A DNA stretch of 50,171 nucleotides from Candidatus Omnitrophota bacterium (GTDB lineage: Bacteria > Omnitrophota > Omnitrophia > Omnitrophales > JAQTRP01), in assembly GCA_028711765.1 (NCBI GenBank), contig JAQTRP010000001.1, forward strand, positions 1-50,171, written 5' to 3'. Both the position numbers and the translations under genes were made by a program. A model generated the notes under the pieces. It saw only the letters and a list, made by a program, of their open reading frames with translations. It was not told where the DNA came from and searched no databases. Positions 36,101 through 37,380 of the stretch are shown here, one piece after another (positions within the stretch are counted from its first letter, which is position 1; every line of letters begins with the position of its first letter).

Positions 36101-36766
36101 TTTGTCTCGTGCCACATCGAGGGATTTTCTCATCCTGTTTATTTCATCAAGCAGTCCTGCCTTCGCCTCCTGAGCCCGGAGAAACGCCGTCCTATCATCT
36201 TCATAAAGCACCGTATCCTCGAGGGCGTAATAACCGGCGCCTGTCTCATCACACATCGCTGAGTACTCAGTGCCTGAGATTTCGCCCTTTGCCATCACGC
36301 GATCAAGGATTTTGCCCTTCAGTTCCTTATTCGGGAAGGCCTGAATCGGCAGAACATCAAATTTGCCGCTTCCGCCTTCTGTGGCAATGAGAGACGCGCC
36401 CTGCGCTTTGAAGTGGTCTATTATCGATACGATACTCTTCTGGGCTTCATAGAGACAGTGGGCGTCCTGTATATAAATGACGATGCCTTTCTTCGGATCG
36501 CCTTTAAAAACCTCGCCCGTAAAACCTAAATTTTGTGGAACGGTTATGGCGTAAGGGTCGGTCGCAAGCGTAAACGGCAGAGCCTCAAGATTCGGCTTTG
36601 CTACTTTATCATTAGGCGCCGACCAAACGACTGTCTGAAATGAGAAGACGGCTGCTACAGAAAGGGCAACGACGCGCAGCCAGTAGGGCGCATTCCCCGA
36701 ATGCGCCGCCGATCGCCGGGCTGTTTGGGAAACAGCCCCTACAAATATGTTTAACGTCTTCTTCAT
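27134..36766 (-). CDS. Giant (3210 aa) membrane-anchored multidomain protein; function unknown
   Basis: Uninterrupted ATG-initiated ORF with GGGGAG 9 nt upstream. Motifs seen by eye:
- hydrophobic anchor at aa 29-48;
- IYIQDAH (97-103) with LVTGGFH (488-494);
- kinase-like DVHPNN (1490-1495) and VVVDLG (1511-1516);
- RRQFF plus a hydrophobic stretch (1621-1641);
- HELVH (1830-1834);
- GNAT motif A KKDARDGGLGSFL (2748-2760);
- eight G-x-S-L-G linkers. Confidence 0.9.
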   Translation of the reverse strand: MKKTLNIFVGAVSQTARRSAAHSGNAPYWLRVVALSVAAVFSFQTVVWSAPNDKVAKPNLEALPFTLATDPYAITVPQNLGFTGEVFKGDPKKGIVIYIQDAHCLYEAQKSIVSIIDHFKAQGASLIATEGGSGKFDVLPIQAFPNKELKGKILDRVMAKGEISGTEYSAMCDETGAGYYALEDTVLYEDDRTAFLRAQEAKAGLLDEINRMRKSLDVARDKIYSGELKQFDAALSNYKEGKISLIDLICVIRDKSVEKKLFLARYPKLASLIQNVNAEEKADGSDSKRFRQFIDKAEAALSQFFAKDRTHKEKQRELARIKQSYQIGRASRFSYARELFEVLRKLGLEEGPQSEMKDVFDFPLDIREMQGTELFSEIKSVSKEIKSSMFKGEDDKTLDSLYERLSVLENIAKLELARDDFAEYEKSRGLYDIKVFNDFLSKFGEKTQFKLDLKWAERFYELAIKREEVIYNNFEDLVSSEKAKAAILVTGGFHKQGITRHFRENNISYIIVSPSFSNFDDSSYLRVMRGEYTLNADKLEAEFARRAPRSDYAHLHNSLVTWRVRIIDEAMKQGKIAEAGRYTRYVDDLFDIIDRELSRYTIAVPVLAAVGEKGHEEFIKAMMILFADDALLTSGDPAEYILGQLNDAAKQNLGMGIIEFLNKRAGEDEKFRKALEELIRTWPEVWGYLSGALSEKGITEDGFRNLVKAAIAQAPAGRTALLEGTTVVARERLGQLGLGEEDIKGLVDKVGQMKGVNLSAVSKVAYDKMSPADQEMYSNVEKVIRETLKDRGLRDEDLPLLTALVANLASAAPAGRSLGMKEAAEAVIKELEAKKARTRRAMTNKDMEAIKGASLGAKVEKAAEALKDAIAEKTRTGGPVSKNYLEEAISKAARRHGISKEDLEGHLDMEGLRGLPLPSATGKKLTAETDVSLAPSGVTSPASAPATLTHEPDEVLMNLITGSEREIDTLQFILDNNVGDISGKEKEYEDKIKELKAKVSALKSILRDKEKGEEDFMKVPLEENPIIFYAIDSDEGIRQEVERLVNQKYKSYVGAEGFSDFIEECILGAVGKTKADFEASTAYSVLLYYDSDEEGRPRFKIERSSREKDTVATVISTFVFDRFKAGFRWIEIGVEPKGAGVTATPTSPELPTKVTIIPSETTAVKIAVDKKPFATETAVAMFGSIKAMKIVPQDSGAIEEAAAKVFGSKENTPQLLPMGNFIGIQGMSTAQVMVYIFEQPDVVENYVMREAEAKGMEYSPALAGAVKKELLSQLQSSNIGATREDLIRITTALSGRSLGAVELPLSLEEDAWVNEAGDSYVGGRKEEIIDKVQDLFGDAFKFSRNLENVYGISGALPEHLEKVEMKYFISSTEKHVFKIRLRIKDQYRKIYEKALSPDGELKLLFAFKEGAIEDNEIASLQVLQWTKFIPRFGSPYRNSYVEEWIDGLTVKDAVKIQPLSPKERETVVSTYIQLGIQNSKAKGREEYFNDVHPNNIMFRGKQRDPENPDLVVVDLGLLRGSRQRSKDFLLSRLFLYYEDRNDLKRSRRQILDGIGKAFRSAFPDDSKLSEFLNDALENENTNLKQDQINLVRGWLQKTVPIGGEGASLGTAQAEAGKGFNRRQFFVSLGALGTAFVLGVGGQSVAQEQTGSIRIIRGPTGEYSVLVPKGTSRQIIAALEGARRKVKDPDLKKLLEDRIMDERLENGSAFSSERLPPSIDTRIYPIDFLMNITGYKVPNITREMVERSVGVSNNPEFRGMVRDAHNLLKKKFNLGDEADGASVLFVRGLDDNSFAMVPRGVKLVVVGLDAFEKEEGSRADKVYWIAQKIYHELVHVVNNIKSPGMPPLLDESLAFRATRQILEEYRNYLARTGKAGPDVLGNLKANVDGQKLVEKAFEIISSDRNRGEFCGLINIGTDDFKDIYYKNVQVLGEFIGIELINLKDGTWSKWIWVGPAGKMHKELIKKASVGEPITIAATPLPNIIMPDSILAKAAEAAGIPAAPAGASLGEEFEGNYSWEGDVDRDLAQGIIALAKLGGRWIEGPPPVVKNAAEEAVGPRLGKDAVRRYRYPELFTVPDKTTPGIKGPVRFIDPAKGYETIVVSESEWNLINSGDVEACARLAYMFMQSWVASYNAASGDNLINKREARLLGRVAEHIVLANALIGEVPMLSYDAKVSDPYSRMMARAIVLTGSLKNDISRQLSELINIRKEVKEQEEIVANQKRFAEGIEPKPGEAVRYSVQEVPSLKTEEAAEIHLEALLDTAEIETQKIKNQLSGLNDQIEYLQGEKPAAGNMGRNLVLQRDVLVERLLRLEDLADDAKAELTENGAYLTVADEPSGEDLADLLNAVQKPLRFDEAAYSEAVRRLRETEERAAKELQAKAVLEGRALGEKFVKDGFMEKLDFDLAELFARNLGALRRNGEFVSQIATLSPEQKSDLFEWFKEHEPSRAGMVGNVLQVIDGTVYKVDFSKVELLPDLREGGPEENLLRLGDREGILAHGVSLEKGGVVNLLSIMLDGRIKTGKSGVVDYSTLNKGTTQTPTSAGPFGPLYVVLRRNSEDGKLEDFFGKDIPASFHEAYLVPNEATRSFYEAAIKQAGVQGLITDSKEKELLAKLKTYKAFIDERNAAQITPGASLGFKTELQEAVRQGTKYAHEDKGAALNFRQFLDAAEKAGVGYAEAKKLLQGLAIEDSALESVNSFSREDPSNPELKFFDELFVYVDSQGETQGCCLIEIDRRNNTGNLKWLFVKKDARDGGLGSFLMGVFFGELKEYGMTKATISAYQDAFGFYQKYLGQIYGARPNVDYMLGAGEGPDGNITITIDLTKLTSSSKPGILSPAGRSLGMEKTAADVIAYYMLKEVLPGADIGIKEPAAADVVSVLANWESLKHDRVESLVRGWIRKKTLEYSDSRALLCRILEAGINEETVREIEGLVADYNAIAPEGQKIVPDKTGAFIQSAAKILTDASLIYASGTPEKMVRPAAWMEAYGMEPGDLSEALGLSVNLLDVPLDQLKPSGTPAFFFIDFNSITTGLDKVAQKQLIQALALKLGQDSRLVISGDSDDVSNIPVWLREVKSGFVLGKNLRIIRRVDVATKRDIAKWLEEAKGINNAVFVMKSLETEDAKKLTEIVARRAKDKLTLFFSFDMAKQTRASVNPFFALLLRVAFDAEAVLGKFPDIVKSIRVENNCYIVEVDLDRLEAIRDSAAAIARAA

Positions 36767-37380
36767 TCTAATTTCTCCCCTGTATAGAGCATGAACTTTG
36801 CCCGAAGTTCCTTAGGCACATTCCTGAACCTCACGGCCAGCTTAACCGAGCCGTCATCCTTGATGCGCGTGACACGGCCTTTCATCTCGAGATTAAGAGG
36901 CGGCGCGAAAATAGTGTTCAATTTGAAATGAAGGTCTATGGGGTCCCCGACCCGCGGCAGGCCATCCTGCTTTTCATAATCAACCACCTGAAGGAAAACT
37001 CCGGTATGAGAAATATTTAATATGTCCGCTTTGCCCGAAAGGTTTTTTCTGTTTGGTATCGCGATATCGAAGGAGCAATCTATACTTGTGTTTATGCGGA
37101 CGGCCTCTCTCTGTTCGCGCCTTTGCCGCTCATGGTTACCGTTTAAATCAGCCGCGCTCCCCAAAAGATAGGTTTCGATATCATGCCGGCAGTAACGCCA
37201 TTTCTTGCCTATCCGGAAAGACTTGATTATCCCACGTTCTGAAAAGTAATAAACCGTGGAGAGGGGCAGGTTTAGAAACAGGCTTACCTCTTTGGGCGTC
37301 ATCACCCCTGAGTAAGGTTTTTTACCTCTAATATCCCTTGTTTTCATCACGCCGACCTTGGTACTTTCCAATGTTTCCAA
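36763..37380 (-). CDS. HTH (excisionase/MerR-like) - PilZ fusion protein, putative c-di-GMP-responsive regulator
   Basis: MTPKEVSLFLNLPLSTVYYFSERGIIKSFRIGKKWRY is an excisionase-type HTH. RREQR ... NISHTG is a PilZ RxxxR/(D/N)xSxxG pair. The track start 37380 is a TTG; the ATG at 37347 is an alternative. The TGA stop overlaps the ATG of the giant ORF (ATGA). Confidence 0.75.
   Translation of the reverse strand: METLESTKVGVMKTRDIRGKKPYSGVMTPKEVSLFLNLPLSTVYYFSERGIIKSFRIGKKWRYCRHDIETYLLGSAADLNGNHERQRREQREAVRINTSIDCSFDIAIPNRKNLSGKADILNISHTGVFLQVVDYEKQDGLPRVGDPIDLHFKLNTIFAPPLNLEMKGRVTRIKDDGSVKLAVRFRNVPKELRAKFMLYTGEKLE

Follow-up and report, generated by a model that had tools for sequence, protein, structure and literature searches.

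The stretch of DNA analysed here, called the window below, comprises 50,171 nucleotides (nt) of a Candidatus Omnitrophota bacterium (positions 1 to 50,171 of contig JAQTRP010000001.1, GenBank assembly GCA_028711765.1) and is one of the contigs of a 1.9-Mb metagenome-assembled genome (MAG) that is 92% complete. On its minus strand a small gene, whose product joins a helix-turn-helix (HTH) domain to a PilZ domain, overlaps the start of a giant open reading frame (ORF) of 3,210 amino acids (aa). The giant genes of Omnitrophota, with lengths from thousands of codons to over 100,000, count among the most poorly understood traits of bacterial genomes, and to our knowledge nothing is known of when they are expressed. 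The HTH-PilZ protein is considered here as a probable local transcription regulator that responds to cyclic dimeric guanosine monophosphate (c-di-GMP) and acts on its own two-gene operon. The features of the locus are as follows.

36763..37347, minus strand: HTH-PilZ gene, 194 aa plus stop (ORF translation, start kept in homologues, Pfam domains)
27134..36766, minus strand: giant ORF, 3,210 aa, taken from the ORF list, with an N-terminal signal or anchor segment, an N-terminal domain of ~560 aa (residues ~30-590) and a GNAT domain at residues 2710-2793
36763..36766, minus strand: ATGA stop/start overlap of the HTH-PilZ gene with the giant ORF (from the sequence; also in homologues of 84% and 68% identity)
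36775..36780, minus strand: Shine-Dalgarno-like GGGGAG for the giant ORF, inside the coding end of the HTH-PilZ gene, 8 nt before the giant ATG
37165..37305, minus strand: HTH_17 winged helix-turn-helix of the BldC/excisionase type, residues 15-61 of the 194 aa (Pfam PF12728)
36796..37116, minus strand: PilZ beta-barrel domain, residues 78-184 (Pfam PF07238 and Foldseek)
37096..37110, minus strand: RxxxR c-di-GMP motif REAVR, R80 and R84, in the interdomain linker (invariant in a nine-sequence alignment)
37000..37017, minus strand: (D/N)xSxxG c-di-GMP motif NISHTG (S113 and G116 invariant in the alignment)
37401..37429, minus strand: promoter-like site TTGTAA-17 nt-TATACT (consensus scan; conserved in close relatives)
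37364..37381, minus strand: direct repeat ATTGGAAAC/ATTGGAAAG of 9-bp period between the -10 box and the start codon, a candidate operator (Tandem Repeats Finder, TRF)

The HTH-PilZ gene and the giant gene behind it

The first-pass annotation of this DNA had described the small gene as an ORF of 205 (or 194) aa. The ORF is indeed present, and of its two possible starts the ATG at 37347 (194 aa) is favoured over the alternative upstream TTG at 37380 (205 aa; 36763..37380, minus strand), because the ATG is the start used by the protein-database entry and its cluster and by the 84%- and 68%-identical homologues, while the TTG falls within a conserved non-coding direct repeat. The database annotation of the gene is 'helix-turn-helix domain-containing protein' or 'excisionase family DNA binding protein' only. 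NCBIfam holds no full-length family for the HTH-PilZ protein and gives sub-threshold matches to the HTH alone, namely MADS1 and 'excise'.

Homologues were gathered by an identity look-up and by searching 41 related genomes, named genomes and 301 Omnitrophota genomes. Giant-linked loci were examined in 18 distinct cases, and in all of them the regulator is followed on its own strand by a giant as the next substantial ORF. The regulators at these loci are 25-84% identical to the window protein and belong to several Omnitrophota families, one of them in another order, so that the conservation of HTH-PilZ genes upstream of giant ORFs, proposed earlier as a check, extends beyond close relatives. 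The complete giants are 2,039, 3,068, 3,210 and 7,594 aa long and those cut by a contig end measure from at least 948 to at least 4,002 aa; the contigs of L008, L009 and L039 are too short for the giant to be sized, and the L039 fragment still shows the N-terminal domain that the giants share. Since giants with this domain make up only ~0.5-2% of genes, as estimated from match counts, chance is excluded as the cause of the adjacency. In addition, the pairwise distances of the regulators and of the N-terminal domains of their adjacent giants are correlated (r=0.52 without the closest pair, Mantel p=2e-4), which would fit inheritance as a unit and to which shared species phylogeny contributes too. 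The association is one-way: all regulators of the giant-linked type precede a giant, but no more than one or two giants per genome have a regulator.

A profile search of 1.84 billion representative sequences gave 131 clusters at E<=1e-30 and 477 at E<=1e-10, and the best 150 matches are nearly all full-length proteins of 160-250 aa. A family tree of 171 rows contains two well-supported clades of 62 and 76 rows (138/171), which hold all 18 giant-context loci, and the subclade of the window is nested in the first of them. The members of a third clade (~23-28 rows) often end in N and carry LSTVHHLT in the HTH, and their genes lie in a housekeeping context, pyr operon-pyrF, HTH-PilZ, yicC-gmk-rpoZ-coaBC (L033, L060, L062, L064, L066, L106, L109, L111). 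A large ORF situated a few kb downstream in the third clade was considered as part of the operon and rejected, because two tRNA genes intervene, so this clade is not giant-coupled; its context suggests an input of c-di-GMP into nucleotide or RNA-polymerase-related genes. Full-length members were found in ~20 of the 301 sampled Omnitrophota genomes, mostly of the window's order, and the full-length relatives in named genome records are all Omnitrophota MAGs, a restriction that rests on the collections carrying names. Closely similar HTH_17 domains also occur in other settings: one (LTAQEVSEHLRIPLSTVYNLTKKGKIPGIKLGKHWRY) is, in two genomes, fused directly to the N-terminus of a ~1,345-aa open frame (L015, G017:C74, 1459..3147; G184:C183:4866-5015), and in L017 and L019 large ORFs are preceded by small HTH_17 genes that stand alone.

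The two genes of the window are joined as had first been read from the sequence: the TGA of the regulator overlaps the ATG of the giant ORF in ATGA (36766..36763), and the Shine-Dalgarno-like GGGGAG (36780..36775) lies within the end of the regulator coding sequence. The latter is kept as GGGGAG or GGGGAA in L006 and L008. Overlapping or abutting cistrons with an internal Shine-Dalgarno sequence are the classic arrangement of translational coupling. A stop/start overlap is present in 14 of the 18 giant-linked loci, as ATGA in three (the subclade of the window) and as tATGTGGGnTAR in 11. In this commonest junction (tATGTGGGnTAA) the regulator end Y-V-G-stop contains the giant ATG, with an overlap of 11 nt; the giants there begin with MW(A/D/T) or MS, and a GAGG-type Shine-Dalgarno sequence stands 12-14 nt upstream of the giant ATG, in the codons of the regulator's C-terminal helix. 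It is a clear case of the same bases encoding the C-terminus of one protein and the start codon of the next gene. The exact Y-(V/I)-G C-terminus is found in 96 of 159 full-length family representatives; the Tyr codon is TAT in every overlap locus, and the two loci ending in Y-I-G both have no ATG, one of them with TAC. The four loci without overlap have a gap of 4 nt (G008), 17 nt (G177) or 439 nt (G023), or an inserted transposase gene (G155).

A separate promoter or terminator between the two genes, which would speak against coupling, was looked for in a scan of the window, and no promoter-like or terminator-like site was found between them; RNA structure at the junction is not significant (z=-0.21). 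That 14 of 18 loci have retained the overlap over deep divergence argues strongly, if indirectly, for a single transcript of the two genes, and it is proposed that regulator and giant form a two-gene operon and are translationally coupled.

The inserted gene at the G155 locus (L035 10522..11103) encodes an IS200-like Y1 transposase (Pfam Y1_Tnp, E 4.7e-5) and sits exactly between the HTH-PilZ gene and a giant of 3,068 aa. At the same locus another giant, of 2,710 aa, lies directly upstream of the HTH-PilZ gene.

The ~560-aa N-terminal domain is common to most giants behind HTH-PilZ genes (blastp E 1e-11 to 1e-63), and the N-terminal 600 residues of the window giant match no Pfam or NCBIfam family. 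In the window this domain occupies 34967..36691 (minus strand) and carries the motifs IQDAH...EGG...GGFH. Nine matches to it were counted in this genome and 1-40 in every one of 41 relatives, at the head of open frames that reach 16,199 codons; the paralogous family that it defines is uncharacterised, very large and greatly expanded in the order. In the giant as a whole (translation of 27134..36766, minus strand), G-(A/R)-S-L-G motifs recur between unrelated segments. A second giant ORF in the window (3..6578, minus strand, at least 2,192 aa), which runs off its end, shares the N-terminal domain (blastp E 8e-36) and is preceded by a Cupin_3 gene (6770..7120, minus strand), not by an HTH-PilZ gene.

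The two domains and their probable link to c-di-GMP

The N-terminal part had been called an excisionase/MerR-type HTH, and the excisionase half of that description stands, in the form of a BldC/excisionase type. Pfam places HTH_17 at residues 26-72 in the 205-aa numbering (E 4.5e-11, 43.3 bits against a cut-off of 27), the family profile matches the BldC chains 6AMA/6AMK (E 1.5e-4), and the AlphaFold2 (AF2) model superposes on DNA-bound BldC 6AMA with a root-mean-square deviation of 1.4 A over 50 residues (Foldseek), while the excisionase model TIGR01764 'excise' reaches 24.9 bits, under its cut-off of 28.8. The HTH_17 motifs LPLSTVY and GKxWRY are conserved in the family. The model shows a winged HTH at residues 18-63, its wing leading into a short helix (54-63), and then a disordered linker and the PilZ domain. 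The MerR half was given up: the model has no coiled coil and no MerR effector layout, the promoter spacer is 17 nt and not 19-20, and the repeats lie 3' of the -10 box. A role as an excisionase, or at an invertible promoter, was also considered and rejected, since the neighbours are an ABC-transporter ATPase, an FtsX permease and the giant ORF, with no recombinase, and no notable inverted repeats flank the promoter.

The C-terminal part is assigned to PilZ by Pfam (residues 89-195 in the 205-aa numbering, E 3e-8, 34.4 bits against a cut-off of 22.5). By Foldseek the barrel matches the c-di-GMP-bound PilZ domains of BcsA, MotI/DgrA, Alg44 and YcgR (E 2e-6 to 1e-4), and the sequence profile of the family finds both structure classes, PilZ (BcsA) and BldC. 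The AF2 model (mean predicted local distance difference test, pLDDT, 75) has an arginine-rich disordered linker at residues 63-78 with RxxxR, a barrel at 85-174 and a C-terminal helix. The first-pass annotation had named two c-di-GMP contact motifs, RREQR and NISHTG. The second is sustained and lies 27 residues after R84, while the first has to be replaced by REAVR, which is the invariant one (9/9 family sequences) and aligns with the BcsA motif RRAAPR; RREQR lies four residues upstream and has one arginine in common with it. The linker that holds REAVR has low pLDDT in the apo model. Both motifs occur at a spacing of 18-40 residues in 133 of 159 family representatives. The HTH-PilZ protein is therefore proposed to be a cytoplasmic c-di-GMP receptor with a canonical PilZ barrel, in which the position of RxxxR between the domains leads one to expect that ligand binding would reorient them, as in YcgR-type receptors.

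The same structural matches bear on a post-translational role. The regulator, made beside the nascent giant, might use PilZ and c-di-GMP to gate the export, membrane insertion or processing of the giant as BcsA and Alg44 do, and the HTH would then have a secondary role in nucleoid anchoring or in protein contact. The closest PilZ structures are those of the secretion-gating BcsA and Alg44, the stop/start overlap in 14 of 18 loci implies production of both proteins at one site, and the Y-V-G end conserved in the 96 members could be a docking motif. However, the Y-V-G conservation is also explained in DNA, where TAT-GTG-GGN supplies the giant ATG, and the cytoplasmic N-terminal tails of the giants are unconserved and vary from ~4 to ~80 residues before the hydrophobic segment, with no common docking surface evident. 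Furthermore, HTH_17 keeps its LPLSTVY and GKxWRY motifs well and matches a DNA-bound BldC structure. A gating role of this kind is thus considered unlikely, and regulation of transcription through the HTH is preferred to it.

The genome encodes at least four complete GGDEF domains, eight other PilZ domains and 4-5 c-di-GMP-I riboswitches. Four of the riboswitches score above the gathering score (C129:14182-14267, C33:9254-9340, C43:9507-9594 and C133:3692-3825) and the fifth, in C132, is sub-threshold. The first belongs to a paralogous HTH-PilZ-giant operon of the same genome (L029 1852-1937; RF01051, 74.1 bits, gathering score 35) and lies 60 nt upstream of the regulator start. The leader of the G155 operon (L035 9664-9782) likewise carries a c-di-GMP-I riboswitch (59.9 bits). 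In both, the 5' arm of an intrinsic-terminator hairpin overlaps the 3' strand of the aptamer, so ligand should prevent termination and both are presumably ON switches. The remaining riboswitches are found ahead of a 1,683-aa ORF, of a giant-like signal sequence where a contig ends and of pseudopilin genes (C132, sub-threshold), and control of large exported proteins by c-di-GMP looks like a general theme in the organism. The c-di-GMP link of the window operon is supported, at the level of sequence, in two independent ways, by the invariant PilZ contact motifs and by the riboswitches on two homologous operons.

The PilZ domain might also be degenerate or bind another ligand, which would leave a ligand-independent DNA-binding protein or a leader gene that provides translational coupling only. 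Some PilZ domains are degenerate, and the Pfam PilZ score of 34.4 bits is modest. The invariance of RxxxR and (D/N)xSxxG, their canonical spacing in most representatives and the GGDEF genes and c-di-GMP-I riboswitches of the genome all speak against it, and it is very improbable.

Operon leader and proposed regulation

In an alignment of four upstream regions the TATACT of the promoter-like site is invariant and the -35 element is conserved. The leader repeat of the window consists of two ATTGGAAA units (shuffle test p=0.003); it is conserved in L006 and more diverged in L008/L009. The exact repeat occurs once in the 1.9-Mb genome, and matches with two mismatches number three, against one for a reversed control pattern. 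Direct repeats with a 9-12-bp period within 70 nt of the start (score >=7) were found at 8 of 11 loci, compared with 3 of 75 control genes of the same loci. CsrA-type GGA sites were considered as an explanation of the repeats and set aside, because by eye the repeats of several lineages have no GGA.

The 5' neighbours on the same strand are the genes for the ABC-transporter ATPase and the FtsX permease, with a gap of 232 nt before the HTH-PilZ gene. Within this region a perfect (CTATACG)x7.6 microsatellite (37564..37616) abuts the stop of the FtsX permease gene upstream of the operon promoter. Unlike the conserved promoter-like site and the sequence 3' of it, the microsatellite is absent from the 84%-identical L006 and is thus strain-specific and possibly length-variable. 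A 13-nt motif, TTGTAGG(G/T)GCTGT on the minus strand, occurs at 37386..37398 just after the -10 box and again at 36732..36744, at giant codons 8-12; it may be due to chance and is not obviously conserved in L006.

From these elements a mechanism can be put together, and on balance it is probable that the HTH-PilZ protein acts locally, as a transcription regulator that responds to c-di-GMP and controls its own operon. The HTH-PilZ gene would be the first cistron, with its own promoter, and the giant exported protein would be encoded by the second, whose translation would begin inside or at the stop codon of the regulator and so be coupled to it. The regulator would bind, head-to-tail like BldC, to the 9-bp direct repeats that lie past the -10 box and ahead of its own start codon, and c-di-GMP bound to the linker and the PilZ domain would alter the binding of the HTH to DNA, so that transcription of the operon followed the cellular level of c-di-GMP. 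As for the sign, a repressor released by c-di-GMP is suggested by the position of the repeats 3' of the -10 box and by the apparent ON riboswitches of the sister operons.

A c-di-GMP-responsive transcription factor could also have its main targets elsewhere (pili, secretion genes, other giants), one giant being merely co-expressed with it and its own operon not controlled. BldC-like proteins are able to control broad regulons (PMC5859096), and the third clade, with its housekeeping context and no giant in the operon, indicates that the family is not intrinsically tied to giants. Against this, the exact leader repeat is found just once in the genome, and regulator and giant are inherited together across families as one unit, their overlap conserved, which is typical of an operon-specific regulator. 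Main targets elsewhere are therefore judged improbable, and control of the regulator's own operon remains the favoured interpretation.

Several observations weigh against this interpretation. Repeats were not detected in G008 and G023 and are below threshold in L008, and the sequence of the repeat unit differs between lineages. In addition, the repeats lie in the transcribed leader by the ribosome-binding region, in the riboswitch-bearing paralogue downstream of the terminator, so they could work through the RNA or have nothing to do with the HTH. No riboswitch or other known RNA was detected in the window at 36500..37900, even at E<=1, and the PilZ protein would consequently be the sole c-di-GMP sensor there. 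The pLDDT of the AF2 model corresponds to moderate confidence. Translational coupling means co-production, possibly near-equimolar, a pattern more often met between interacting partners than between a regulator and its target. Moreover, one or two of the ~9 matches to the giant-type N-terminal domain in this genome sit behind an HTH-PilZ regulator, so the regulator is no general requirement for giant-gene expression.

For the family as a whole a wider proposal can be made, for and against which the balance is about even. HTH-PilZ proteins of the BldC type would form an Omnitrophota-specific family, with at least 131 clusters at 50% identity, and would be the first transcription factors to combine PilZ with a canonical HTH. 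Each member would be hard-wired to one giant, whose start codon in most cases falls within the final codons of the regulator gene; some lineages would have a c-di-GMP-I ON riboswitch in the same leader as a second level, giving gating by both RNA and protein. If true, the giant proteins of these bacteria, which are episymbiotic or predatory, would have their first concrete regulatory input, and the coupled c-di-GMP sensor together with the riboswitches of the sister operons points to one signal controlling a subset of the giants. The hypothesis is testable without culture, for the 194-aa protein and the 100-bp leader can be made in the laboratory.

Elsewhere in the window, 3.8 kb downstream of the giant ORF, a DAC-domain (diadenylate cyclase) gene (23355..24167, minus strand) overlaps a stand-alone PilZ gene (22900..23358, minus strand; PilZ E 7e-14) by 4 nt, a pair that links a synthase of cyclic dimeric adenosine monophosphate (c-di-AMP) to a c-di-GMP receptor domain. 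This pair is separated from the giant ORF by an OmpA-LysM gene and a B12-radical SAM gene.

Comparison with known systems

BldC of Streptomyces, a MerR-like protein that consists of a winged HTH only (6AMA/6AMK), is the best match in sequence and structure to the HTH domain described here, and both proteins are without the MerR coiled coil. BldC forms head-to-tail multimers on 9-bp direct repeats (PMC5859096), and the window leader likewise carries a 9-bp direct repeat. However, BldC has 68 residues and no ligand-binding domain, whereas here the winged HTH, for which DNA binding is predicted, is fused to PilZ.

In receptors of the YcgR/PlzD/PP4397 type, RxxxR likewise belongs to the linker that joins the PilZ barrel to an N-terminal domain. 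Their N-terminal domain is YcgR_N (PilZN) and their output is a protein contact with the flagellar motor, whereas the protein of the window has a predicted DNA-binding HTH in that place.

BrlR is a classical MerR protein that has a coiled coil as well as a GyrI-like domain; its binding of c-di-GMP involves no PilZ domain. As a MerR-family c-di-GMP-responsive regulator of Pseudomonas aeruginosa (PMC12564702), it resembles the HTH-PilZ protein in being an HTH transcription factor of the MerR superfamily modulated by c-di-GMP. The only PilZ-based transcription factor named in a 2025 review is MrkH (PMC12564702), the activator of the type 3 fimbriae of Klebsiella pneumoniae. MrkH is also small and cytoplasmic, has at its C-terminus a PilZ domain able to bind c-di-GMP and regulates an operon for a surface structure. 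It has no HTH, however, and binds DNA by its PilZ and N-terminal PilZ-like domains, while the present protein has a canonical N-terminal winged HTH (HTH_17); the Foldseek match to MrkH is weak (E~1e-2) and confined to PilZ, so the architecture is not of the MrkH type. The targets differ as well, type 3 fimbriae in the one case and, as proposed here, the protein's own operon with a giant gene in an Omnitrophota lineage in the other.

Within Omnitrophota, small pilZ genes have been reported 'immediately downstream' of most giant genes (West-Roberts et al. 2023, bioRxiv 10.1101/2023.11.21.568195). The stand-alone PilZ gene 3.8 kb downstream of the window giant is similar to these, and where giants stand in tandem (L035, L041) the HTH-PilZ gene is downstream of one and upstream of the next. 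The giants of that preprint are much larger, and it describes no HTH fusion, upstream position, stop/start overlap or riboswitches. A 2026 Omnitrophota genome preprint makes no mention of PilZ, and full-text literature searches for PilZ with HTH_17 or excisionase gave nothing relevant.

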